Source of the DNA: Ignavibacteriaceae bacterium
Lineage (GTDB): Bacteria; Bacteroidota; Ignavibacteria; Ignavibacteriales; Ignavibacteriaceae
Assembly (NCBI GenBank): GCA_013359345.1
Contig: JABWCA010000002.1
Span: 740-64,739 of the forward strand
DNA: 64,000 nucleotides
Reading direction: 5' to 3'
Part shown: one piece after another, positions 21,501 through 64,000 of the stretch
How positions within the stretch are numbered: the stretch's first letter is position 1
Layout of the letters: each line of letters starts with the position of its first letter
Translations under genes and position numbers: made by a program
Notes under the pieces: model-generated
The model's input: only the letters and a program-made list of their open reading frames with translations
Database searches by the model: none
Told to the model about the DNA's origin: nothing

Positions 21501-21519
21501 TGTGACACAAAAATTGAAA

Positions 21520-21679
21520 ATGTATCAAGAGTTTTTTCCCTTGCGGGAGAAACAGCAACCGGGTTACGGGCCCACGGTGCTAAAATGATACGCAGATGAT
21601 ATCTGAAATAAACCCGGTTTAACAAAGACCGCACATTCATGATGTCATCTGAAAGACATCCCGGATGTGCGGTTTTTTT
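21520..21679 (+). promoter_or_regulatory. SAM-clan riboswitch (SAM-I/IV- or SAM-IV-like architecture) with intrinsic terminator
   Basis: P1 GUAUCA (21522-21527) pairs with UGAUAC (21586-21591). SAM-I core strings AUCAAGAG, CAGCAACC and GGUGCUAAA are present. The P2 hairpin UUUUCCC-uugc-GGGAGAA has no kink-turn. There is no P4 inside the junction; instead a 3' hairpin CAGAU-gau-AUCUG is followed by AACCCGGUU (21611-21619), which is complementary to AACCGGGUU (21557-21565) in P3 and could form a pseudoknot. The terminator is CCGCACAU..AUGUGCGG (21629-21672) plus U7. It lies upstream of metY-metX-thrA. Confidence 0.6.
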
Positions 21680-21737: not shown

Positions 21738-23153
<1,416 letters not shown>

Positions 23154-46365: not shown

Positions 46366-46920
46366 GTCCACGCCCTGATTTAAGCACCTCTGCAGAACTA
46401 CCATCCAATCAGAATTTTCTGACCCCCGGTATCCGGTATCAAAGAAAAAAAAGATAAATGCATTTTATAACAACAAAAGTGTTAATGACCTTTCAATATG
46501 TTAACGATAACAAAAGGCATTTGCCGAAGCGGGTGTTTACAAAGGTTTGTTATGACGGCAGCAAAACGTGCTGTTATAAGGTATAAAATTACATATTGCC
46601 ATTCGGGGGAAGCTTCCACCGAATAGTTAACCAACGTTAAAATGCGCATTTTGAGGATAATGTAAAATTTTTTGCAGTCAGCTGAAGCAATCGGCAGGAA
46701 TATACGGCCTTAAAATTAAATCAGGTCTTGTGATCACACAACAGGGTTGTTCAGAAGTTCACAGTGATTTGCCACAGCGAATTCAGAAGCCACCCGCTTA
46801 GAGAGCAGTAAACATCAGCAATCCTGCGAGCAGTATCTTTCAGTTGCTGCATCCTGAATCAACAATCTCGTTTATCCTCATTTTCCAGTTTAATACTGCT
46901 TAAAGAAGCACCACGCACTC

Positions 46921-47051
46921 CTGCACAAAGAACGTTTTACCCGTCTGAGCTGCTTAACTAAGTACACAGCACGCCAGCACGAAGAACGTAGTACCCGTCT
47001 GAGCTGCTTAACTAAGTACGCAGCACACCTGCACGAAGAACGGTTTACCCT
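46921..47051. repeat. 54-bp tandem repeat, about 2.4 copies
   Basis: Unit 1 spans 46921-46974 and unit 2 spans 46975-47028. They match at 48 of 54 positions by hand alignment. A partial third unit runs from 47029 and matches for about 23 nt. The shared core is GAAGAACGnnnTACCCGTCTGAGCTGCTTAACTAAGTAC. Confidence 0.85.
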
Positions 47052-47089: not shown

Positions 47090-48475
47090 CTATTTCAGCA
47101 GAATCATCTTCTTGGTATCGGTGAAAGTTCCTGCCTGAATCTGATAATAGTACACACCGGAAGGCAGGTGAGATGCATTGATTTCAATTTCATTTTCACC
47201 CGGTTGTTTTTCTTCATTCACAACCGACATGACAAGTTTTCCCGCAGCATCAAAAATCTTAAGTTCAACATAAAGCAGACCGGGCCCGGCTTTGAGGCTT
47301 TTTAACTCCGGCACGGTGAACCGTATCTTTGTAACAGGATTAAAAGGATTGGGATAGTTCTGCGATAATTCAAAATCTGAGGGAGCGGCAGGATTTTCTT
47401 TCACTCCGGTGGAAAGCTGACCTGTGTATTTATAGATGGTCTGTCCCGAGGCAAACCCTGAAAGCTCATTGATAAAGAAAAACCTGTTAATCCTGACCCC
47501 GAAATTAGCGGGTTCCCAGGTGTCGCCGCCATTGGTGGACATCAGTGTGGTCTGAATGCTGTTGCCCCCTATCCATCCGAGAGTATCATTAACAAATCCG
47601 ATCCCCTGCGAATAGTAGTTGGTCGGGTAGAACTGCTTTTCGAAAAATGAGGTACCCCCGTCAGTTGTCTTAATAAAATTGCAGGGAGATCCCTGATTTC
47701 TCTGCAGGGAGATGTAACCGGTGTTTCTTGAGGGAAATGAAATTTTCCAGCACCATTCACCTGCACGGGATGACGAGTATTTTGTGCTCCAGTTTTCACC
47801 GCCATCAGTAGTATACAACACCACTCCTCTTGACTGTGCGTGCTCAGAGTTTGTTAAACCAACCGCAATCCCGGTATCAGGGCTGAAAAAATGAACATCA
47901 ACAAGTCCTGCGGCCAGAGATGACATATCTTTTGATGTCCAAGATAAACCGCCATCGGTGCTCTTCATAAAGACGCTCGGGCCTCTCACCCTGCCTACCG
48001 CAAATACGAGATTGCTGTCAAGGGCATGCATTCCGCAGACACCCCTGCCAAGCGGACCGCTGATATTTGTAACCGGTCTCCATGTTGTACCGCCGTCAGA
48101 GGTTCTGTATATCAAGGTAGGATCTGTAATGGAAGCTCCGCCGTATTCATCGGGTCCCAGATTACCAAGAAATCCGATACGCTCATTACCAAAAGCCACG
48201 CTTCTGAAAAAGGTTGAATCACTGTAGAACATACGCGTCCAGGTAACCCCGGCATTGGTTGTTCTGTGAGCCTCACGCGCTCCCGAAGCGGTAAAACCCA
48301 GCTGAGGAGTAACAAAAACGAGATCATTTTTCCTTGAACCGAAAGGGGCGTTAGGAACATCGCTCCACGAGGGGATGATCTGTGAATAAATTAAACAGGT
48401 GCTTAAGAAAAAAAGAGCTGTAAAAAGAGAAATTCTCATTATAAATCCATTATAAAAATTAATCGGTGTAAACAT
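47090..48475 (-). CDS. Secreted BNR/Asp-box beta-propeller (Ycf48/photosystem-II-stability-factor-like fold) with T9SS C-terminal domain
   Basis: Signal peptide. Asp-boxes TSDGGTTW, STDGGLSW, TTDGGENW, TTDGGTSF and STNGGDTW. The C-terminus ..LSQNYPNPFNPVTKIRF..GVYYYQI.. has the form of a sorting domain. Confidence 0.75.
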   Translation of the reverse strand: MFTPINFYNGFIMRISLFTALFFLSTCLIYSQIIPSWSDVPNAPFGSRKNDLVFVTPQLGFTASGAREAHRTTNAGVTWTRMFYSDSTFFRSVAFGNERIGFLGNLGPDEYGGASITDPTLIYRTSDGGTTWRPVTNISGPLGRGVCGMHALDSNLVFAVGRVRGPSVFMKSTDGGLSWTSKDMSSLAAGLVDVHFFSPDTGIAVGLTNSEHAQSRGVVLYTTDGGENWSTKYSSSRAGEWCWKISFPSRNTGYISLQRNQGSPCNFIKTTDGGTSFFEKQFYPTNYYSQGIGFVNDTLGWIGGNSIQTTLMSTNGGDTWEPANFGVRINRFFFINELSGFASGQTIYKYTGQLSTGVKENPAAPSDFELSQNYPNPFNPVTKIRFTVPELKSLKAGPGLLYVELKIFDAAGKLVMSVVNEEKQPGENEIEINASHLPSGVYYYQIQAGTFTDTKKMILLK

Positions 48476-49863: not shown

Positions 49864-51618
49864 ATGATGAAATTCTTTAATAATCTGAGCACAAAAATAA
49901 AACTGTTTGTCAGCTTCGGAGTTATCATAGTGATTTTTATATCACTGGAGCTTAACAAGACATTTCAGACCGATGTTATCTGGGAAAAACAGCAGAAGAT
50001 CTCTGAACAGTACTTTGAAGAAGTGATAAAGATCTCCAGCATAAAAACCAATCTTGATAAAATTAAAACCTCCGGTCTTGAACTTGTTCTTTCATCTGAG
50101 ATGGATGCAAATGTGAAAGTTGCTGAAATACAGAATATTGCGCTGCTTCTTGAATTTGAGAGTCAGAACCTGCTGCAGACCATCAGCCCTTCTTCCGCAT
50201 ATTCGGATGAGGTAAGAGCCCTGCTGAGTGAAATTAAAATTTATGCAGATCAGTTTAACCTTGAAATCATCCCCCTGGTTAAATCGGGTAAAAGCGCAGA
50301 CGCAATAAGGCTGGAGCAGAAATACCGCAATGAAACAAACACAAAACTCAGCAAGCTTGTTGACACGATAATAAATTCAATAAAAAATGAAACCGGCACA
50401 AACCTCACGCAGAGCAGAATAGATCTTGACAGAACCGAGTTCATTTCACTTATTCTGATGCTGGTTTCAATACTTCTCAGCATTTATCTTGTGATCTTCT
50501 TAAACAGCTCAATATCCGCACCGCTGAAAAAAATTGCTTACGATTCAGACAAGCTTGCACAGGGTGATCTGGATGTGAGCCTTGAATCAGAAAAGAGAGC
50601 TGATGAAATAGGCACGCTCACCGAAAGTTTTGGCAAAATGATCAGTTCGCTTCAGGATGTGGCTTCCTTTGCCGGAAGAATTGCCAAAGGTGATCTTACG
50701 GCAAAGCTGGATTCAAGATCAGAGAGAGATATTCTTGCCAATTCACTCAACATGATGGCAGAAAATCTGAAAAATATCACAAAAGAACTTCTGCAGGCAG
50801 TGAGCGTTGTTTCATCTTCATCTTCAGAAATTCTGGCGGGCACATCTCAGCTTTCGGCAACCGCAACAGAAACAGCCACTGCTGTGAGTGAAACCACGGC
50901 AACAGTTGAAGAAGTGAAACAAACCTCATTTGTAACGCGCAACAAGGCGAAATTTGTAGCAGAAATCTCACAGAAAGCGGTTGAAGTTTCGATCTCGGGA
51001 AAAGATTCAACCCAGGCAACAATTGAAGGAATTCATAAGATCGGCACTCAGATGGAGATGATAGCAGAGAGCATTATCAAGCTGAGTGAACAGAGCCGAG
51101 CCATCGCTGAAATAATATCTGTCGTTAAGGATATCGCCGAGCAGACCAACCTTCTTGCGGTTAATGCTTCAATTGAAGCCGCAAGAGCAGGAGAACAAGG
51201 AAAAGGCTTTGTTGTGGTTGCTCAGGAAATCAAGAGTCTTGCCGATCAGTCGAAACTGGCCACTACTCAGGTAAGAACAATTCTTAATGAAATCCAGAAC
51301 GCCATCTCGGCAACAGTAATGGCAACAGAGCAGGGCAGCAAGACCGTTGAAGCAGGAATAAAGCAATCAACCATTGCGGGTGATTCAATAAGAACCCTCA
51401 CAGATACAATTGAAGAAGCCGCACAGGCAGCATTTCAGATTGAGGCATCAAGCCAGCAGCAGTTTCTCGGTATGGATCAGGTGGTTGCAGCCATGGAAAA
51501 TATTAAAGTTGCAAGCTCACAGAATGCATCAACCACACATCAGCTTGAAGGCTCGGTGCAGAATCTGAAATCGCTTGGTGAAAATCTCAGAAAACTTACG
51601 GATCAATTCAAAGTTTAG
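49864..51618 (+). CDS. Methyl-accepting chemotaxis protein (two TM segments, periplasmic helical sensor, HAMP, signalling domain)
   Basis: Conserved signalling hairpin ..QTNLLAVNASIEAARAGEQGKGFVVVAQEIKSLA.. and a HAMP region after TM2 (..SAPLKKIAYDSDKLAQGDLDV..). Confidence 0.93.
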   Translation: MMKFFNNLSTKIKLFVSFGVIIVIFISLELNKTFQTDVIWEKQQKISEQYFEEVIKISSIKTNLDKIKTSGLELVLSSEMDANVKVAEIQNIALLLEFESQNLLQTISPSSAYSDEVRALLSEIKIYADQFNLEIIPLVKSGKSADAIRLEQKYRNETNTKLSKLVDTIINSIKNETGTNLTQSRIDLDRTEFISLILMLVSILLSIYLVIFLNSSISAPLKKIAYDSDKLAQGDLDVSLESEKRADEIGTLTESFGKMISSLQDVASFAGRIAKGDLTAKLDSRSERDILANSLNMMAENLKNITKELLQAVSVVSSSSSEILAGTSQLSATATETATAVSETTATVEEVKQTSFVTRNKAKFVAEISQKAVEVSISGKDSTQATIEGIHKIGTQMEMIAESIIKLSEQSRAIAEIISVVKDIAEQTNLLAVNASIEAARAGEQGKGFVVVAQEIKSLADQSKLATTQVRTILNEIQNAISATVMATEQGSKTVEAGIKQSTIAGDSIRTLTDTIEEAAQAAFQIEASSQQQFLGMDQVVAAMENIKVASSQNASTTHQLEGSVQNLKSLGENLRKLTDQFKV

Positions 51619-51627
51619 GTCTGAATA

Positions 51628-54057
51628 ATGAGCCCCCAGAATGAAGAATTTCTGAAAAGACTTCGTGCAACGTTCAGGATTGAGGCAAGAGAACATCTTG
51701 AAACAATCTCGGCCAGTCTCCTCGGGCTTGACAGCCTTGCCCCGCAGGAGATCACCGGAACGGTTGAGCTCATTTTCAGGGAGGCTCACAGCCTCAAGGG
51801 GGCAGCGCGCGCCGTAAATGAAAATGAAATAGAGCTGGTCTGCCAGTATATTGAAAGCATCTTCTCACTCCTTAAAAAATCGGAAATCTCTTACTCGCCT
51901 TATATTAAGGATATGCTTATATCTGCCGTTGATCTGATGACCATTTATATGAATCTGACCGAACCGGAAGATCAGAAGGCGCACGGTAAAGATCTGAAAA
52001 ATCTGGCCGAACAATTAAAGAGCTTTGCTGAAGGCGGTCATCAAGTGGCCGGGGTCCACGCTCATAAGGAGATTCCTTCCCACAGGCCTGTTGAAATGAC
52101 AGGTGAAAAAACTCCTCCCGTTAAAAGGGAGCTGAAAAAAGTGGTGATTGGTTCTGCAAGGGTACCGGCAGCTAAAACTCAGCCCGTATCAGCAGAAAAA
52201 CCCGCAGAACCCCGCCCCGCTCCGGCTGAAACCATTCTGCCCGCAGAGAAACCGGCCACCGCAACAGAAAGGGAGAGCGTAAGGGAGACGCTGAGAATTG
52301 CCTCTGAGAAAATTGACACCCTGCTGCTTAAGACTGAAGAGCTGCTCAACATTAAGCTGATGATCGGCGAGTATGAGAAACAGCTTAATGATTCCCTCTT
52401 TTATTTTCAGCCCTGGAAAAAAGAATGGGAAAAAATACAGACAGAACTCAGATATCTGAAAAACAGAATCAGTCTTAATGACGGAATGGATTACAGAGAC
52501 AAAAAAGCAATCACAGAAATTCTCAATTATATTGACTGGAACCATTCGCTCGTCTTCGTTGTAGATTCAAAACTCTCAAAATCTGCCAAAGACCTCGCCA
52601 GAACCAGGCACTCCGTCTCACAGATGATAGATTCAACGCTTACCGATGTAAAAGATATTATGATGATGCCTGCCTCGTCAATGCTCAGCATACTTCCAAA
52701 AATGGTTTATGACATTTCAAGAGAACTCGGTAAAGTGGTGGATCTTGACATAAAAGGGGGCGATATTGAAATTGACAGGAGAATTCTTGATGAACTTAAG
52801 GATCCTCTCATACACCTTGTGAGAAATGCGGCTGACCACGGACTTGAAAAACCCGAAATAAGATTAAGAAGAAAAAAAAGCGGAGCGGGAAAACTTAGGG
52901 TGATTCTTTCCAACATTGACAGCAGCAAGTTTGAGATTCTCGTTGAAGATGACGGTAACGGAATTGATGTTGAAAGGGTAAAGGAGAAGGCGGTTAAAAA
53001 CGGTCTTATAACCCAGAAAGAAGCCTTTGAAATGTCGCTCACAGATGCATACGCCCTGATTTTTAAATCTGATATTTCAACCAGTCCCGTAATCACCGAT
53101 CTTTCAGGCAGGGGGCTGGGCATGTCGATAGTTCTTGAAAAAGTTGAAAAGCTCGGCGGAAACATAATCACAGAATCAGAACCGGAGAAATTCACAAGAT
53201 TCAGGCTGATTCTGCCGCTTTCGGTGGCAACTCTTAGAGGAGTTCTTGTAAAAACCGGAGAGGATCATTATGTTATTCCCTCATCGGGGGTTGAAAAAGT
53301 GCTGAGAGTGAAAAACAATGAGATAAAGTCGGTTGAAAACAAGGAAACGGTTTTTTACTCAGGTAAAACCATACCCCTTGCCCCGTTAAGGGGACTGCTT
53401 GAGCTGCCCGATACCCACAGAAAGGAAGAGCCGGTGCATACAAATGTGATGGTTCTGTTCAACTCTGAGAATATGGTGGGAGTTTCTTTTGATGAGCTTG
53501 TGGATGAAGCCGAGTTCCTGATAAAGCCCTTTAACCGTCAGCTCCAGAGAATCAGGAATGTTTCTGCGGCAACGGTTTTGGGTTCAGGCCAGATAGTGCC
53601 CGTGCTGAATATATCAGATCTTATAAAGTCATCTCTTGAATTTGCGGGAGAATTAAGAGTGCGGAGCAAAGCGGCAGAACAGCCAAGCCGTGAGGAACAC
53701 AATATCCTTGTGGTTGATGACTCAATAACCTCACGAATGCTGCTTAAAGATATTCTGGAATCGGCTGGGTATAATGTTAAAGTCGCCATTGACGGGGTTG
53801 AAGCCCTCACTGCTCTCCGGTCTGATAAGTATCATGCCGTGGTCACTGATATTGAAATGCCGAGAATGAACGGGTTTGAGCTGACCTATCAGATAAGAAA
53901 AGAAGAAAAACTTAAAAACACACCTGTTGTACTGGTTACGGCTCTCTCTTCTCCCGAAGACAGGGAGAGGGGTATTGAAGCCGGCGCCGATGCATATATA
54001 GTTAAAAGCAGTTTTGACCAGAGCAATCTGCTTGATATTGTTGAAAGACTGATATAG
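51628..54057 (+). CDS. cheA: CheA histidine kinase fused to a C-terminal receiver domain (CheA-REC hybrid)
   Basis: HPt FREAHSLKGAARAV, a Pro-rich linker, N-box HLVRNAADHGLE, G1 DDGNGID and G2 GRGLGMS. The P5 CheW-like domain is followed by REC ILVVDDS..VVTDIEMPRMNG..VLVTA. Confidence 0.93.
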   Translation: MSPQNEEFLKRLRATFRIEAREHLETISASLLGLDSLAPQEITGTVELIFREAHSLKGAARAVNENEIELVCQYIESIFSLLKKSEISYSPYIKDMLISAVDLMTIYMNLTEPEDQKAHGKDLKNLAEQLKSFAEGGHQVAGVHAHKEIPSHRPVEMTGEKTPPVKRELKKVVIGSARVPAAKTQPVSAEKPAEPRPAPAETILPAEKPATATERESVRETLRIASEKIDTLLLKTEELLNIKLMIGEYEKQLNDSLFYFQPWKKEWEKIQTELRYLKNRISLNDGMDYRDKKAITEILNYIDWNHSLVFVVDSKLSKSAKDLARTRHSVSQMIDSTLTDVKDIMMMPASSMLSILPKMVYDISRELGKVVDLDIKGGDIEIDRRILDELKDPLIHLVRNAADHGLEKPEIRLRRKKSGAGKLRVILSNIDSSKFEILVEDDGNGIDVERVKEKAVKNGLITQKEAFEMSLTDAYALIFKSDISTSPVITDLSGRGLGMSIVLEKVEKLGGNIITESEPEKFTRFRLILPLSVATLRGVLVKTGEDHYVIPSSGVEKVLRVKNNEIKSVENKETVFYSGKTIPLAPLRGLLELPDTHRKEEPVHTNVMVLFNSENMVGVSFDELVDEAEFLIKPFNRQLQRIRNVSAATVLGSGQIVPVLNISDLIKSSLEFAGELRVRSKAAEQPSREEHNILVVDDSITSRMLLKDILESAGYNVKVAIDGVEALTALRSDKYHAVVTDIEMPRMNGFELTYQIRKEEKLKNTPVVLVTALSSPEDRERGIEAGADAYIVKSSFDQSNLLDIVERLI

Positions 54058-54064
54058 GAAAAAA

Positions 54065-55105
54065 ATGATCAGAGTACTGATTGCTGATGATTCTGCAGTA
54101 TCACGTGATCTCCTGAGTTATATACTTGAATCGGATCCGGGAATTAAAGTGGTTGGCACAGCCGTCAACGGCAAAGAGGCCGTGGATCTCGTAAAAGAAT
54201 TGCAGCCCGATATCATCACGATGGATATTGAGATGCCGGTTATGGACGGGGTGGAGGCAACCAGAAGGATTATGGCAAACAACCCCCTGCCGATAATCAT
54301 AGTAAGTTCTTTCTGGAACACAGCCGATGTCAACCTCAGTTTCAGGGCACTTGAAATCGGGGCAATTGCCATTGCGGATAAACCAAAGGGACCCGGAGCC
54401 CCTGAGTTTGAAGCTGAGTCAAAAAAGCTGATAAAAACAGTGAAACTGATGTCGGAGATCAGGGTTGTAAAAAGGATCTATAAGCATAAACAGGAGAGCA
54501 TTAAATCTGTAACCGGTGCAGCGGGAAAAGCAATGCCTCCGGAAAGAAGCATTAAGATTGCCGGAATAGGTGCCTCAACCGGAGGTCCGCAGGTTCTTGA
54601 AAAAATACTCAGGGGGATCAGGAAAGATCTGAGCATACCCCTGCTGGTGGTGCAGCACATAACTCCCGGATTCACGCAGGGCTTTATAACCTGGATGAAC
54701 CAGTCATCGGGAATTCCGGTAAAACTTGCAGAGCACAATGAAAAATTAAAAGGCGGTGTGTGTTATGTGGCTCCTGATCACAAACATATGCTGCTTGAGA
54801 GCGGCTGGCGGGTATATCTTTCGGACGGGCCTCCGCTTAACAGTCACAGGCCATCCGTTTCGGCACTTTTCGGATCCCTTTTAAAGGAGGCAGGCGCCGG
54901 AGCCATGGCGGTTCTCCTGAGCGGCATGGGTAAAGACGGTGCGCAGGAAATGAAAAAATTAAGAGACGCAGGAGCAACAACTGTTATACAGAATCAGGAG
55001 AGCTGTATAATATTTGGTATGCCGGGTGAAGCTAAAAAACTCGGCGGGGCTGAGTTTGAACTGACGCCCGACCGTATAACGGATTACCTGAATCAACTGA
55101 ACTGA
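54065..55105 (+). CDS. cheB: Protein-glutamate methylesterase/deamidase CheB
   Basis: REC (VLIADDS..ITMDIEMPVMDG) plus a methylesterase domain with catalytic contexts GASTGGP, QHITPGF and GMGKDGA. Confidence 0.93.
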   Translation: MIRVLIADDSAVSRDLLSYILESDPGIKVVGTAVNGKEAVDLVKELQPDIITMDIEMPVMDGVEATRRIMANNPLPIIIVSSFWNTADVNLSFRALEIGAIAIADKPKGPGAPEFEAESKKLIKTVKLMSEIRVVKRIYKHKQESIKSVTGAAGKAMPPERSIKIAGIGASTGGPQVLEKILRGIRKDLSIPLLVVQHITPGFTQGFITWMNQSSGIPVKLAEHNEKLKGGVCYVAPDHKHMLLESGWRVYLSDGPPLNSHRPSVSALFGSLLKEAGAGAMAVLLSGMGKDGAQEMKKLRDAGATTVIQNQESCIIFGMPGEAKKLGGAEFELTPDRITDYLNQLN

Positions 55106-55133
55106 GATCACCACATTTAACCGAAAGGCAAAA

Positions 55134-56444
55134 ATGCAGTCGGAAAAATATATTTTAATCGTTGAAGACAGCCCTACTCAGGCTGAAAAACTAAGATTAA
55201 TTCTTGAAGACAGCGGCTACAATGTCAAAACCGCATACAATGGTGTGGCAGCCCTTGAGATTATCAGGCTGGAAAAACCGCTTATAATCATCAGTGATGT
55301 CATTATGCCCGAAATGGACGGCTATGAACTCTGCAGAACCTTGAAAGACAGTGATGAATTCAGGAATATTCCCTTCATACTCCTGACAGCCCTTTCGGAT
55401 CCCAAAGATGTTGTAAGGGGACTTCAGGCCGGAGCTGATAATTTCCTGACTAAACCTTATAACCAGAAGTTTCTTCTCTCAAGGGTGCAGTATATACTTG
55501 CAAATCTTGATCTCCGTAAGAATATGGTTTCGGATATGGGGATTCAGGTGATGTTTGCCGGTCAGAAATATTATATCAACTCCGACCGCATCCAGATCAT
55601 TGACCTTCTCCTCTCCACTTATGAAAATGCGATTCAGAAAAATGACGAGCTTGCCATTGCCAACCAGGAACTTATGGAAATTCAGAGGGAGATGGCCATT
55701 AAAAACAAGGAGCTTGAAAAACTGAATGCTGAAAAAAACAAGTTCATCGGTATTGCGGCTCATGATCTGAGGGGAAGCATGGGGAGCATTCTTTCATCAA
55801 GTATTCTGCTTGAACAGGAATTTGACACAATTGACAGAGAAGAAGCCATTGAGTTTCTTAAACTCATACGTGATTCGAGCGATTTTGTTCTGGGTATGAT
55901 TAATGAGCTTCTTGATGTCTCGGTCATTGAATCGGGTCAGCTGAAAATGAAGCTGACAGAGTTCGATCCGGTTGAACTTCTTATGAAAAATCTTCAGCTG
56001 CACAGGCATGCTGCCGAGCAAAAACAGATCACCCTTAATTTTTACACTTCTGATAATGTAAAGACAATCATTGCAGATCATAATAAGCTTGAACAGGTTT
56101 TCAGCAATCTGATTTCAAATGCGATCAAGTTTTCTTTTCAGGGGAAAGAGGTTGATGTCACGCTTGAAGATTCAGGTGAAAAACTCCTTCTCACCGTGAA
56201 GGATCAGGGGCTTGGAATACCTAAAAATGAGATCGGGCTTCTCTTTAAGCCATTCCCTAATACATCGGTAAGGGGTACTGCAGGTGAAAGAAGCACGGGA
56301 CTCGGTCTTATGATCGCAAAAAAGATTATTGACGCGCACGGAGGCACAATCTGGGTTGAAAGTGAACAGGGCAAGGGTTCGGTTTTTTATGTTGAGCTGC
56401 CCTATGAGGCGTTCACTTACGAAGATATGCTCAAATACGACTGA
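55134..56444 (+). CDS. Response-regulator receiver fused to a histidine kinase (REC - coiled coil - HisKA - HATPase_c)
   Basis: REC ILIVEDS..IISDVIMPEMDG..ILLTA. H-box IGIAAHDLRGS, N-box NLISNAIKFS, G1 KDQGLGI and G2 GLGLMIAKK. Confidence 0.9.
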   Translation: MQSEKYILIVEDSPTQAEKLRLILEDSGYNVKTAYNGVAALEIIRLEKPLIIISDVIMPEMDGYELCRTLKDSDEFRNIPFILLTALSDPKDVVRGLQAGADNFLTKPYNQKFLLSRVQYILANLDLRKNMVSDMGIQVMFAGQKYYINSDRIQIIDLLLSTYENAIQKNDELAIANQELMEIQREMAIKNKELEKLNAEKNKFIGIAAHDLRGSMGSILSSSILLEQEFDTIDREEAIEFLKLIRDSSDFVLGMINELLDVSVIESGQLKMKLTEFDPVELLMKNLQLHRHAAEQKQITLNFYTSDNVKTIIADHNKLEQVFSNLISNAIKFSFQGKEVDVTLEDSGEKLLLTVKDQGLGIPKNEIGLLFKPFPNTSVRGTAGERSTGLGLMIAKKIIDAHGGTIWVESEQGKGSVFYVELPYEAFTYEDMLKYD

Positions 56445-59599: not shown

Positions 59600-61159
59600 A
59601 TGAGCGAAAAAAATGATGTGAAAAAAATACCTGATGCAGGTATTGGTGAAAAGGTTTTAAATCTGGTGGAGCGGCTTGGTAATAAACTGCCTGATCCTGC
59701 CATTTTATTTCTTATATCTCTGCTGAGTGTATGGATTCTTTCAGCCTTATTATCACCTGTGGTGTTCAGTGAAATAGACCCGAGAACAAAAGAACCCCTT
59801 AAGATTGTTAATCTCCTTTCCGGTGAATCGCTGGTTGCGTTCCTTTCAAATATGGTGACCGTATTCACGGGATTTGTGCCGCTCGGGGTTGTGTTAGTGG
59901 CAGTGCTGGGGGTTGGTATAGCGGAACAGTCGGGTTATGTGAATACCGGACTTAAGCTGCTGATGAAAATCACCCCGAGAAAACTCCTCACCCCTATGAT
60001 AATATTGGTTGCTATTGTATCACACACTGCGGTTGACAGCGGTTACGTTATTGTGATTCCCCTTTCGGGACTTATATTTTATACAGCAGGCAGGCATCCC
60101 CTTGCAGGTATTGCAGCGGCTTTTGCCGGAGTATCGGGCGGATTCGGAGCTAACTTTGTTCCCTCTGGAATTGACCCGCTGCTTCAGGGTTTCACACAAT
60201 CTGCCGCAAGAATAATAGACCCTGAAATATTGGTTAACCCTCTTAACAACTGGTACTTCACAGCGTTTTCATCCGTCTTTATAATCTTCCTCGGCTGGTT
60301 CATAACCGACAGAATTATAGAGCCCAGACTCAATTCAAAGTTTAAGTATGAAAGCGCCGGGGAAACAGAATCAGACATGAGTACAATAACACCAAAAGAG
60401 AAAAAGGCATTTTACCTTTCATCCCTTCTGATGATCAGTATGCTGATTGTTCTGGTTGTGACTTCAATGAGTGGCGATTCTCCATGGCGTGATAAAGACG
60501 GCAACATTTCGTCATTCAATGCCCCCCTTATGAAATCAATTGTTCCGCTGATCTTCCTGATTTTTGCTCTGCCCGGTGCGGCATACGGATATATCTCAGG
60601 GTCATTTAAAAAATCCAAAGATGTCATAATGGCGATGGCAAAATCCATGAACGGCATGAGCTATTACATAGTGATGGCATTTTTCTGTGCGCTTTTCATA
60701 GATGCATTCTCAAAATCAAACCTCGGAGCTCTTCTGGCGCTTAAAGGTGCGGAAATTCTGAAGCAGCTTGCCCTGCCGGGTCAGCTTACTATTATCGGAA
60801 TGATTCTGCTCACCGCTCTGGTGAATATATTTGTAGGGTCGGCTTCAGCCAAGTGGGCGCTCATGAGCCCGATAATCGTTCCCATGCTGATGGGACTCGG
60901 TATTTCTCCCGATTTAACTCAGGCAGCGTACAGAATCGGTGATTCATCCACAAATATTATCACACCGCTCCTGGTTTATATGCCCCTTATAGTGGTTTTT
61001 GCACAGAAGTATGTAAAGGAGACAGGCATAGGCACGCTTATATCAATAATGCTGCCCTATTCTATTACATTCATAATCGGGTGGACAATCTTCCTGCTCG
61101 TTTACTGGACCCTGGGTATCCCGCTCGGCATACAGGCTGTTTACACCTATACACCATAA
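59600..61159 (+). CDS. abgT: AbgT-family transporter (p-aminobenzoyl-glutamate / antimetabolite efflux family)
   Basis: The N-terminus ..LNLVERLGNKLPDPAILFL.. is characteristic of AbgT. It has many TM segments and is 519 aa. Confidence 0.85.
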   Translation: MSEKNDVKKIPDAGIGEKVLNLVERLGNKLPDPAILFLISLLSVWILSALLSPVVFSEIDPRTKEPLKIVNLLSGESLVAFLSNMVTVFTGFVPLGVVLVAVLGVGIAEQSGYVNTGLKLLMKITPRKLLTPMIILVAIVSHTAVDSGYVIVIPLSGLIFYTAGRHPLAGIAAAFAGVSGGFGANFVPSGIDPLLQGFTQSAARIIDPEILVNPLNNWYFTAFSSVFIIFLGWFITDRIIEPRLNSKFKYESAGETESDMSTITPKEKKAFYLSSLLMISMLIVLVVTSMSGDSPWRDKDGNISSFNAPLMKSIVPLIFLIFALPGAAYGYISGSFKKSKDVIMAMAKSMNGMSYYIVMAFFCALFIDAFSKSNLGALLALKGAEILKQLALPGQLTIIGMILLTALVNIFVGSASAKWALMSPIIVPMLMGLGISPDLTQAAYRIGDSSTNIITPLLVYMPLIVVFAQKYVKETGIGTLISIMLPYSITFIIGWTIFLLVYWTLGIPLGIQAVYTYTP

Positions 61160-61199
61160 CAGAGGATAACCAGTCTTTAACCACCCCTTAAATTAAAAG

Positions 61200-61224
61200 T
61201 GCCGCTCACAGCGGCATTTTTTTT
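61200..61224. terminator. Intrinsic terminator after abgT (possibly bidirectional)
   Basis: TGCCGCT-cac-AGCGGCA followed by T8. The opposite strand has CUUUUAAUUU after the stem. Confidence 0.75.
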
Positions 61225-61281
61225 GCTAATGATAATAACTGCACCGCCAGTTAATTCCTGTACTACTGTAAAAAATTGTTT

Positions 61282-61309
61282 ACACTGCCGAAAAGCGTTT
61301 CGGCAGTGT
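61282..61309. other. Strong stem-loop (12-bp perfect stem, 4-nt loop)
   Basis: ACACTGCCGAAA-agcg-TTTCGGCAGTGT. On the minus strand it is followed 7 nt later by U6. Confidence 0.7.
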
Positions 61310-61400
61310 GTAAAGGCTACGCATGGCAGTGTGCAAAGGCTGCCCCCGGGCAATATTAAAAGGTTACCCCAGAGCAGTGTGTAATGGCTGCCCGGCAGTT

Positions 61401-61805
61401 AATTCCTGAATCCCGTATTCCTGCGTCCTGAATCCCGTATTCCTGCGTCCTGAATCCCGTATTCCTGTGTCTTGAATCCTGTATTCCTGAGTCCTGAATC
61501 CCGTATTCCTGTGTCTTGAATCCTGTATTCCTGCGTCCTGAATTCCTGCGTCCTGAATTCCTGAGTCCTGTATCCTGAATTCCTGTGTCTTGTATCCTGA
61601 ATTCCTGAGTCCTGTATCCTGTATTCCTGTGTCCTGTATCCTGTATTCCTGTGTCCTGTATCCTGAATTCCTGAGTCCTGAATCCCGTATTCCTGTGTCC
61701 TGAATCCTGAATTCCTGAGTCCTGAATCCCGTATTCCTGTGTCCTGAATTCCTGTGTCCTGTATCCTGATTTCCTGTATCCTGTGTCTTGTGTCCTGTTT
61801 TCCTG
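61401..61805. repeat. Array of 55 contiguous 7/8-nt units NN(T)TCCTG (22-bp super-period); minus strand reads CAGGA x45, CGGGA x6, CAAGA x4
   Basis: Parsed by hand unit by unit. There are 20 octamers and 35 heptamers, which sum to exactly 405 nt. Most units follow an 8+7+7 pattern. There are no unique spacers. Confidence 0.9.
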
Positions 61806-61823
61806 TTTACTAAGCCGAAGGCG

Positions 61824-61851
61824 TTTCACTGCTCACTACTCACTGTTCACT
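61824..61851. repeat. Four tandem heptamers NNTCACT between the array and the ppc stop
   Basis: TTTCACT GCTCACT ACTCACT GTTCACT, in register with the adjacent 7-nt periodicity. Confidence 0.8.
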
Positions 61852-61852
61852 G

Positions 61853-64000
61853 TTATCCTGTATTCCTTATACCGGCAGAAATACCGTTAACTGTTGAGCG
61901 GAGCAGGGTAAGAATCTGTTCATCCTTCTTTTCGGGGTTGCTGCGGTATTCACGTATAAATCTGAGCTGGATGAAGCTGATGGGATCAAGATAAGGATTC
62001 CGTAGTAAAATGGTTCTCTGAAGAGCTTTATCGCTGTCAAGCAGGTACTTGTGACCGGTGATTTTAAGAACGGCGCTCACAGTTAAAAGGTACTCTTCCT
62101 TTATACCGGAAAAAATCCTGGCTGAGCCGGGTGAACTGCACAGAGCCGCATACTCCTCGCCGATTATGAGGTTGGTTTTTATAAGAATCATCTCAAGATT
62201 ATCGGTAAGAACCTTGAAAAATTTCCAGCTCCTGTAAATTTCCTTCAGCTTTTCCCAGGTGGTGATATTTTCATTTACCGCATTGTGAATTGCAGTACCG
62301 AAACCATACCAGCCGGAGATTGTCTGCATATTCTGATTCCACGAAAACACCCACGGAATTGCCCTCAGGTCTGAAATTTCCTTTGTTTTCTTTCTTGCGC
62401 TCGGCCGTGAGCCTATTTCAAGCTGTTCAATGATATCAATAGGAGTGGCTTCCCTGAAATAACCGATAAAATCATCATCTGTTACAAGAGAGCGGTATTT
62501 CTCAAAAGCTGACTGCGAAAGACCTGAGAAAAGTTTATAGTACTCTGCCGGTGCCCCTCCGGTTTTTCTGCTGAATCTGGAATTATAGGAGGCTGAAATA
62601 ACAGCCGAAGTAATCATTTCCAGGTTTGAGAGAGCAAGATCAGGCAGAAGATACTTTGATGAAATCATCTCTCCCTGTTCAGTGATCTTGATTTTGCCGT
62701 TAACCGTACCAACCGGCTTGGCGAGAATTGAATCATACACGGGTCCGCCGCCGCGTGAAATAGAGCCGCCCCGGCCATGAAAGATGATCATTTCGATCCC
62801 GGCTTTTTCAGAAACATCCCTCAGGTTCTTCTGTGCCTCAATAAGCTCAAAGTTTGAAGTGAGATACCCGCCGTCTTTGTTGCTGTCGGAGTAACCTATC
62901 ATTATTTTCTGAATATTACCCCTTGCGTTCAGCTGACTCCGGTAGAGAGGAGTGCTGTAAAGTTCATCCATTATATCATGGCACTCCCTGAGATCGGAGA
63001 TGGTTTCAAACAGAGGCAGTATATTGATGACAGAAGATGCAACCCCGTTTCCTTCAATTTTCACGAGTCCAGTTTCCTTGGCAATGAGCATGGCCGAAAG
63101 GACATCGCTCACACGGGAGCAGTTGCTTATGATATAATCTTTTCCCGCCCACACAGAGATTGTCTCATCCGCCCATTTAATGAGTGAAAACTCCTCCATT
63201 ATCTGCAAAGTTTTCTGGGAAAGAGATGAAAACTGATTAACCAGGGGTCTGGGGCTGCTTATCTCATTAAGAAGTATCCGGTTTTTCTCAAACTCCTCAA
63301 AAGAGGAAAACTTTCTGATTCCGCAGCTTTTATCCAGTATTTCCTCAACCGCAGCCCTTATTAACGCCGAGTTCTGCCTTATATCGAGTTTGGCAAAATA
63401 AAAACCGAAAGTTTTAACTTTATAAATCAGGGGCAGAACTATAGTTTCGGTAATCTCGCGACCCTTGTTTTCAAGCAGAGAGTCATAAATAATCTCAAGA
63501 TCATCAATAAGTTCATCTTCATTTTTATAAGCCGCGGGGTCATTTTTATCAATACCGTTGAGTTTGGAATATATAAAAAAGAGTTTGTGACGGTAAACTT
63601 CGCCGGGATCTGTAAACCGGGATGCTTCTGAAACATCAAGCAGTTTCTGGTCTCTGGCTATCGATTCCTTTAATGCGGGTGATGCGCTGGTCTGATGCAC
63701 TGAACTGCTGAGGTAGATATAAAGAGTATCGAGTTCAGCCTTATAAAGCCTGATTATCTGATCACGGTTCTGCAGAAGAGTCTCGCGCGTTATTTTCGGG
63801 GTAACAAACGGATGCCCGTCGCGGTCACCGCCTATCCATGACCCAAAACGAATAAGCACAGGGGATATCCCTTTTTTAAGGCCTGCTTCTTTAAGATGAT
63901 AATTTATTTTAGAGTAAAACCTGCCTATAACAGGATAAAGAACATCCTTGAAGAAAAACAATCCGCGCTGCACCTCATCCTGGATAGTGATTTTATGAAA
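61853..64000 (-). CDS. ppc: Phosphoenolpyruvate carboxylase; C-terminal part of about 715 aa, N-terminus outside window
   Basis: GYSDSNKDGG and FHGRGGSISRGGGP catalytic motifs and the universally conserved C-terminus ..IRNTG. The track's M at 63973 is an internal GTG; the frame stays open to the window edge. Confidence 0.95.
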   Translation of the reverse strand, partial: FHKITIQDEVQRGLFFFKDVLYPVIGRFYSKINYHLKEAGLKKGISPVLIRFGSWIGGDRDGHPFVTPKITRETLLQNRDQIIRLYKAELDTLYIYLSSSVHQTSASPALKESIARDQKLLDVSEASRFTDPGEVYRHKLFFIYSKLNGIDKNDPAAYKNEDELIDDLEIIYDSLLENKGREITETIVLPLIYKVKTFGFYFAKLDIRQNSALIRAAVEEILDKSCGIRKFSSFEEFEKNRILLNEISSPRPLVNQFSSLSQKTLQIMEEFSLIKWADETISVWAGKDYIISNCSRVSDVLSAMLIAKETGLVKIEGNGVASSVINILPLFETISDLRECHDIMDELYSTPLYRSQLNARGNIQKIMIGYSDSNKDGGYLTSNFELIEAQKNLRDVSEKAGIEMIIFHGRGGSISRGGGPVYDSILAKPVGTVNGKIKITEQGEMISSKYLLPDLALSNLEMITSAVISASYNSRFSRKTGGAPAEYYKLFSGLSQSAFEKYRSLVTDDDFIGYFREATPIDIIEQLEIGSRPSARKKTKEISDLRAIPWVFSWNQNMQTISGWYGFGTAIHNAVNENITTWEKLKEIYRSWKFFKVLTDNLEMILIKTNLIIGEEYAALCSSPGSARIFSGIKEEYLLTVSAVLKITGHKYLLDSDKALQRTILLRNPYLDPISFIQLRFIREYRSNPEKKDEQILTLLRSTVNGISAGIRNTG

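Follow-up and report, generated by a model that had tools for sequence, protein, structure and literature searches.

A hypervariable heptamer/octamer repeat array between the convergent ends of ppc and abgT in an Ignavibacteriaceae bacterium

The ppc-abgT spacer and its repeat array

What can be discerned about a dense repeat from its anatomy, its alleles and its neighbors? The window analyzed here, a stretch of 64,000 nt from an Ignavibacteriaceae bacterium (GenBank assembly GCA_013359345.1, contig JABWCA010000002.1, positions 740 to 64,739), carries two convergent genes near its end, ppc for phosphoenolpyruvate carboxylase and abgT for a transporter, and the 693-nt spacer between their ends holds an array of 55 abutting units of 7 or 8 nt. 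Tandem Repeats Finder (TRF) reports it as the sole long tandem array within the 64-kb window. An earlier interpretation made from the letters alone (the sequence-only reading) had presented the array foremost as a candidate CsrB/Rsm-like protein-sponge RNA, with a hypervariable tandem repeat among its alternatives. Our characterization agrees better with that alternative: the array is probably a hypervariable heptamer/octamer simple-sequence repeat (SSR), that is, a variable-number tandem repeat (VNTR) or minisatellite, carried passively in the 3' untranslated region (3' UTR) of ppc. Its non-coding location, between the stop codons of the two genes, is confirmed. The features of the locus, in the order in which they follow one another from abgT to ppc, are these:

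59600-61159, plus strand: abgT-family transporter gene, convergent with ppc (Pfam ABG_transport, E 2.2e-191)
61195-61221, no strand assigned: bidirectional terminator hairpin 3' of abgT, with a 12-bp stem, an A-run before it and T8 after it (inverted repeat and minus-strand terminator-like match)
61270-61309, minus strand: probable intrinsic terminator of the ppc transcript, with a perfect 12-bp stem (61282-61293 / 61298-61309) followed by AAACAATTTTTT on the minus strand; the terminator function is inferred
61302-61320, 61326-61345 and 61374-61393, minus strand: three copies of a ~20-nt motif, reading GCAGTGTGYAAWGGCTRC on the plus strand (sequence inspection)
61401-61805, minus strand: the array, 55 head-to-tail 7-/8-nt units of the form CAGGA(A)NN, with 6 CGGGA and 4 CAAGA variants and a main order of 8+7+7 that yields a 22-nt super-period
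61806-61824, minus strand: unrepeated 19-nt linker ACGCCUUCGGCUUAGUAAA with a weak hairpin of 3-4 bp and no T-run, kept in all strains
61825-61852, minus strand: four heptamers, CAGTGAA/CAGTGAG/TAGTGAG/CAGTGAA, adjoining the ppc stop (TRF, period 7 x 4.3)
61853-64000, minus strand: 3' part of ppc, which continues past the end of the window (Pfam PEPcase PF00311, E 3.9e-226; translation)
61854-61867, minus strand: 14-mer formed by the end of ppc and two bases of its stop codon, TATCCTGTATTCCT on the plus strand; one unit pair of the array has the same sequence, and this stretch is the likely seed of the repeat

Parsing the array into units gave 405 bases and exactly 55 units, 35 of 7 nt and 20 of 8 nt, with the plus-strand endings CCTG (45), CCCG (6) and CTTG (4), which reproduces every number of the sequence-only reading. 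The 22-bp super-period that it had described is found by TRF as well (61404-61806, period 22 x 18 copies), together with periods of 44 and 66. On the minus strand, which is that of ppc, we count 51 GGA, the number of motifs that had been estimated, and 45 CAGGA, with GGA spacings of 7 nt (27 times), 8 nt (19) and 14 nt (4). The composition on this strand is A 39%, G 29%, C 18% and T 14%, versus 29/22/21/28 for the window. Almost all unit variants are present three or more times and there are runs of identical 22-mers, three of them in succession at the abgT-proximal end, which argues for recent amplification. A CRISPR array, which needs repeats of at least 23 nt and unique spacers of similar length, had already been dismissed and was rejected here too, as the units abut without spacers.

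The window ppc, whose protein is 99% identical to a 925-aa protein (P0001), ends in the codons AGG AAT ACA GGA (61856-61867; R-N-T-G, the protein end being ...GIRNTG*) and the stop TAA (61853-61855). A terminator scan found no terminator-like site between this stop and the array, and the first good hairpin with a T-run on the ppc strand lies ~90 nt beyond the array. It is the hairpin at 61282-61309, which just misses the rule of the scanner because its T-run begins too far past the 12-bp stem; the final copy of the ~20-nt motif on the ppc strand is fused into it and forms the 3' arm region of the stem. Since the GGA-rich strand is the ppc sense strand, no terminator precedes the array and a hairpin with a T-run follows it, the array is most likely transcribed as part of a ppc 3' UTR that would be ~580 nt long in the window strain. 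The sequence-only reading had placed the array between the ppc stop and this hairpin, with no terminator before it and the GGA-rich strand in ppc sense; all of this held and would naturally suggest a location in the ppc 3' UTR.

Polymorphism and presumed origin

The alleles of the array were compared in a conspecific set, defined as the members of the ppc cluster 99% identical to the window protein and traced to nine contigs, whose flanks share 96.5-98.5% nucleotide identity with the window. For the window AbgT protein and for the protein P0122, no exact database match is on record; P0126, an N-terminal ppc fragment, gave no information. Length could be read for three alleles:

Window: ppc-abgT spacer 693 nt, 55 units
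L203 (NCBI metagenome-assembled genome (MAG) contig JAKLJK010000012.1): spacer 512 nt, ~30 units
L201 = L202 (two independent Logan assemblies): spacer 329 nt, ~12 units

The linker and the terminator hairpin are conserved among the conspecifics, the latter being kept in L201, L202 and L203, but the array is not. L201 and L202 have degenerate distal units (CAAGATA, CAGCATA, CAGGTAT), and a deletion also takes away one downstream copy of the ~20-nt motif, leaving two; in L203, TRF gives this motif a period of 24-25 x 2.9. The CAGTGAR heptamers after the ppc stop constitute a second small repeat of variable copy number, with three in L207 versus four in the window. The arrays of the window, L203/L205, L206 and L207 start alike (CAGGAAAA CAGGAC...) and then differ in unit order, so that at least four distinct orders exist among the conspecifics, and the super-period, 22 nt in the window, is a mixture of 15 and 22 nt in L203. 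The 7-/8-nt unit and its core C(A/G)(G/A)GA are kept in every allele. Five short-read contigs (L204-L208) end inside the array, 61-134 nt past the ppc stop; the array accounts for the breaks that short-read contigs of this species show just past ppc. The sequence-only reading had named absence or wild length variation among close relatives as the mark of a neutral microsatellite, and alleles of ~12, ~30 and 55 units are what we find. Thus, the hypervariable VNTR, which it had listed as an alternative, becomes the favored interpretation, as both length and unit order vary among conspecifics.

The array is restricted to one species. A one-genome-per-species scan with a ppc fragment returned MAGs of Ignavibacteriaceae, Ignavibacteriales and Melioribacter; the closest other species, L001, has a ppc 84% identical to that of the window, all other species reach at most 57%, and in none of the 79 more distant Ignavibacteria/FCB (Fibrobacteres, Chlorobi, Bacteroidetes) ppc loci at this level of identity does an array follow ppc. 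The L001 contig (2786-2792) ends 3 nt past the ppc stop, which fits an assembly break at a repeat but is no proof thereof. In another Ignavibacteriaceae MAG (L010, 8806-8870), a CTCATCA x 9.3 array lies ~660 nt downstream of ppc, and L028, L019 and L042 carry other short arrays of 7 or 14 nt; thus, heptamer repeats are not unique to the window species within the class.

Where could such an array have come from? The 14-mer at 61854-61867 is the longest array word that occurs elsewhere in the 64-kb window, and among the 13- and 14-mers on both strands it is the only one shared. It lies 48 nt from the array, in the same orientation. In the other strains and in L001 the ppc terminus reads AGGAATACGGGGTAA, which has 11 nt in common with CAGGAATACGGGATT, the unit pair that occurs most often in the array. 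Judging from these matches, the array most plausibly grew from the 3' end of ppc as its seed, because the RNTG terminus is fixed by protein function. The final two codons of ppc differ synonymously, being ACA GGA, as in the repeat units, in the window, ACG GGG in other strains and the sister species, and ACA GGC in L207; perhaps the array has converted the ppc terminus, or the terminus the array, by gene conversion.

Our comparison suggests a scenario that starts from a pre-existing 7/8-nt quasi-repeat, made up of the R-N-T-G codons (AGG AAT ACN GGN) and the bases that follow the stop. Beyond the ppc stop, this seed would then have been multiplied by slipped-strand mispairing and unequal recombination into an array that would still be expanding, contracting and reshuffling blocks of 15, 22, 44 and 66 nt. 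Presumably it is transcribed passively in a long ppc 3' UTR, and its existence would not need a sequence-specific function. The CAGGA core could be retained without selection because whole-unit duplication and deletion outpace point mutation. If so, the array would exhibit a traceable birth from conserved terminal codons of a neighboring gene.

Candidate functions

Could the array nevertheless act as a sponge? In a form that extends the decoy of the sequence-only reading, the array, within the intact ppc 3' UTR or in a piece cut from it, would titrate a CsrA-like or other single-strand RNA-binding protein by means of its ~51 CAGGA/CGGGA motifs, copy number setting the capacity. We consider this unlikely, and slightly more so the specific version in which an unstructured decoy with up to 51 (A/U)ACAGGA(U/A) sites, its capacity VNTR-tuned between strains, would operate in an FCB-group lineage. 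The proposal draws on the 51 GGA motifs within 405 nt of ppc sense strand, on the lack of a terminator before the array and the hairpin with T-run after it, on the retention of the motif core in all alleles, and on the chemotaxis proteins encoded in the window (CheA/CheW, CheB and methyl-accepting chemotaxis protein (MCP) domains), csrA often traveling with flagellar genes. Units such as AUACAGGAU resemble the high-affinity consensus of CsrA, RUACARGGAUGU. The array RNA would also be largely accessible: its centroid structure is nearly unpaired, at -16 kcal/mol. Its minimum free energy, -58 versus -32.5 kcal/mol for shuffled sequences (z -6.6), is better than chance because GAAUUC and GGAUUC are (quasi-)palindromes, and the corresponding structure consists of scattered pairs among them. 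The earlier claim that the strand lacks self-complementarity is therefore wrong as to these quasi-palindromes but right in its consequence, in that the centroid is almost unpaired and GGA does not appear in hairpin loops.

This last point already counts against a sponge, as no stem-loop presenting GGA occurs in the predicted fold. The sequence-only reading had proposed an Rfam homology search and a search for csrA as checks: cmscan with Rfam 15 assigned no family to the array, whether at gathering score or at E<=10, and tblastn with the CsrA proteins of E. coli and B. subtilis had no match in the window or in 1.7 Mb of further loci. A sigma-70-like site or a Bacteroidota-type TAnnTTTG motif was not found upstream of the array on the ppc strand, and the GacA/UvrY box TGTAAGN6CTTACA had matches at chance level only, none of them upstream of the array, although an RNA derived from a 3' UTR would not need a promoter of its own. 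Units without GGA (CAAGA, CAGCA) persist and are amplified; length differs four- to five-fold among conspecifics, and the array is not present in other genera. Use of Shine-Dalgarno sequences in the window organism is low, as in Bacteroidota (an AGGA/GGAG/GAGG motif at 9 of 39 starts in the window, versus a background of 11%). We found no literature on CsrA in Ignavibacteria, and in Bacteroidota as delimited by GTDB, CsrA is reported to be scarce (PMC13443453). The GGA spacing of 7-8 nt is tighter than the >7 nt cited for CsrA sites (PMC4679880), and than the roughly 10-60 nt used by CsrA dimers. Like CsrB, CsrC and RsmX/Y/Z, the array is ~400 nt long, carries (C)AGGA many times over on the presumably transcribed strand and is followed by a probable hairpin terminator; unlike them, it has no Rfam homology, no detected promoter of its own and no stem-loop motifs, and it is hypervariable within the species and missing from related genera. 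Thus, among the hallmarks of the class, the reiterated GGA is present, whereas loop-presented GGA, a family model, an own promoter or box and conservation among relatives are lacking, and we do not uphold the sponge as the headline. Were it true, it would be the first such RNA outside Proteobacteria and the first with a VNTR-set dosage, extending sponge-RNA regulation to the FCB group.

Some observations sit less comfortably with a passive repeat. The array units closely resemble the CsrA motif (A/U)ACA-GGA-U of the type obtained by systematic evolution of ligands by exponential enrichment, and the GGA strand coincides with the ppc sense strand. Every conspecific assembly examined carries the array, with unit and core kept, despite a flank divergence of 2-3%; had the repeat been purely neutral, some lineages might have been expected to lose it. 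Furthermore, the shorter alleles come from short-read assemblies and are possibly partly collapsed, but two independent samples yielded the same sequence, as L201 and L202. A motif-dependent role is still conceivable because the unit and the CAGGA core are found in all alleles.

Functions that do not depend on a sponge fare no better. As an element inside the probable ppc transcription unit with a highly polymorphic copy number, the array could act in the manner of a contingency locus: alleles of different size would give ppc a 3' UTR that differs in length, stability or termination efficiency, with heritable, reversible differences in phosphoenolpyruvate carboxylase level as the outcome. In other bacteria, post-transcriptional modulation of expression by intergenic SSRs has been described (PMC12721329). 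The downstream terminator, however, is unchanged between alleles. To our knowledge, bacterial contingency loci reside in promoters, 5' UTRs and the reading frames of surface or restriction genes and not in the 3' UTRs of central metabolic genes, so we regard such tuning as improbable. An even smaller chance is to be given to an antisense insulator, for which the composition of the plus strand (T 39%, C 29%, G 18%, A 14%) and the convergence of the genes would speak: Rho, a suppressor of antisense transcription, has a preference for unstructured RNA that is rich in C, poor in G and set with spaced YC dimers, and the U/C-rich, G-poor, unstructured plus-strand RNA, with UC/CC every 7-8 nt, might serve as a Rho-loading (rut-like) tract that stops read-through from abgT into ppc. 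Yet the strong intrinsic terminator of abgT at 61195-61221, with its 12-bp stem and T8, and then the 61282-61309 hairpin come before the array, and length variability and species restriction count here equally.

At the level of DNA, the 22-bp super-period, equal to two helical turns, and the regularly spaced AATT/GAATTC of the window array would suit an iteron-like array of binding sites or a phased, curved tract. Here, helical phasing is not maintained, because the L203 allele has a super-period of both 15 and 22 nt; neither neighbor is a gene for replication, partition or regulation, and there is no promoter to regulate because the spacer lies between two gene ends, which makes such an element highly improbable. 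Least credible of all, and almost certainly mistaken, is a protein-coding array, notwithstanding an open 157-aa minus-strand reading frame (61356-61829) with a 22-residue repeat, a match of it to Pfam Pentapeptide_2 (E 4.5e-8) and a 122-aa gene called over the array in the annotation of the L203 MAG. All three frames of the CAGGA strand are stop-free because the units contain no stop triplets, and the 7-/8-nt length changes between strains would shift the frame. Against 5.8 billion proteins, the 157-aa product has only two weak matches, both on one unrelated crustacean-metagenome contig. The Pentapeptide_2 match is compositional, as the N-T-G codons (AAY ACN GGN) are shared by chance with true pentapeptide repeats. 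A pentapeptide-repeat protein (PF01469-like) was rejected on the grounds that periods of 7, 8 and 22 nt are not multiples of 3 and real homologs are absent, the open reading frame (ORF) being a by-product of the repeat.

Kinship with other repeats and further features of the window

If the array is a hypervariable SSR, as we favor, it has company. Heptameric SSRs are over-represented in bacterial intergenic DNA and are without assigned function (PMC4692102); the array shares with this class its spacer-free units, its non-coding site and its polymorphism among close relatives. It is a further example of these functionally unexplained repeats, an unusually long and clean one, and places the class on record in Ignavibacteriaceae. 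In Xanthomonas (GGGAATC) and Nostoc (GGGGA(C/T)T), such repeats are mostly transcribed, prefer the downstream side of ORFs with the G-rich strand coding, are under-represented where genes diverge, and differ among close relatives in both length and sequence (Rehm et al., 2015; PMC4692102). Like these and the short tandemly repeated repetitive (STRR) heptamers of heterocystous cyanobacteria, our array lies in non-coding DNA and is built head to tail from 7-nt units in which the positions around a G-G-A core vary. As in Xanthomonas and Nostoc, its G-rich strand falls on the coding strand downstream of an ORF and its variation in close relatives is extensive; its units CGGGATT/GGGATTC nearly equal the Xanthomonas unit. 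It differs in mixing 7- and 8-nt units within a 22-nt super-repeat, in its 55 units versus mostly 4 and at most 26, in its host family and in being apparently traceable to the terminal codons of the adjacent gene. A G-quadruplex of the GGGAATC type, which requires four or more G-runs, each at least three G long, was also rejected; unlike for the Xanthomonas and Nostoc heptamers, it is unlikely for the array because its units carry GG runs, with GGG in just 6 of the 55.

A second parallel is offered by the TAACTGA arrays of Beggiatoaceae, Cyanobacteria and some Bacteroidetes (MacGregor, 2015), which reach up to 43 copies, do not occur in the same spacer of nearest relatives and interrupt the contigs of relatives; an RNA-binding-protein role was proposed for them but never shown (PMC4679880). 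Common to both are the heptamer array, the intergenic site, an FCB-group genome and contigs of relatives that end inside the repeat. The TAACTGA repeats, however, mostly lie just upstream of start codons in forward orientation and contain no GGA, whereas our array lies 3' of a gene and contains it. In Xanthomonas, Nostoc and Beggiatoaceae one motif is found again at many sites across the genome; in the 64-kb window the array is the single one of its kind.

A metagenome scan with the degenerate four-unit pattern TCCTGNNTCCYGNNTTCCTGNNTCCTG returned at least 120 loci, and none among the matches listed is the same locus as the window array. Most of the matches listed are CAGGA arrays with a 15-nt period in AT-rich ORFs that encode N-T-G-x-x pentapeptides (AAY ACA GGA); L092, L093, L097, L099, L118, L134, L137, L140, L145, L171, L197 and L200 are of this kind, with 15-38 copies. 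By their flanks they are coding look-alikes, and they were rejected as relatives of the array. The protein segments downstream of these arrays look conserved, and the ORFs probably belong to a family of phage/virus-like repeat proteins. Such pentapeptide-repeat coding arrays (PF01469-like) on AT-rich, phage-like contigs owe the same look of a CAGGA every 7/8 nt to their AAY-ACA-GGA codons; they have a strict 15-nt (5-codon) period in long ORFs with coding flanks, whereas the window array has a 22-nt period between two stop codons. As a caution, then, slippage or N-T-G codon repeats can produce a dense CAGGA periodicity in the absence of CsrA-type biology.

A minority of the matches listed are non-coding heptamer arrays (CAGGAGT, CTCAGGA, AGGAATC, TCCTGAT and others), some in inverted pairs, on unrelated contigs with a GC content of 0.43-0.68; thus, such arrays arise in many unrelated bacteria. 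In three contigs (L128 5851-5975, L132 8906-9035, L196 1855-1990), CAGGAAA(C/T) heptamer/octamer arrays abut a conserved element of ~40 nt (GGGTCGYCAACAAAAWWTCGGAC...AGAGACA), on the other side of which an inverted TTTCCTG array seems to begin in L132. Several contigs of metagenome Ga0265295 carry arrays of this type, for which Rfam had no match. In the high-GC contigs L114 (~716-873) and L188 (1223-1414), CAGGA-type and then TCCTG-type arrays stand back to back in inverted orientation and could form very long hairpins.

Elsewhere in the window, the minus-strand ORF 47090-48475 is followed directly on its 3' side, within an intergenic region of 770 nt, by a 54-nt tandem repeat (46896-47050; 2.9 copies, 84% matches) that has no Rfam match at E<=1. 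The chemotaxis cluster spans 49864-56444 and comprises an MCP (HAMP and MCPsignal domains), a CheA-CheW-receiver fusion, CheB and a hybrid response-regulator/histidine kinase, the domains being assigned from the syntenic locus L201. Finally, a SAM-I/IV riboswitch (RF01725, 54.7 bits) is located at 21517-21621 on the plus strand, ~210 nt upstream of a 439-aa ORF (21834-23153).

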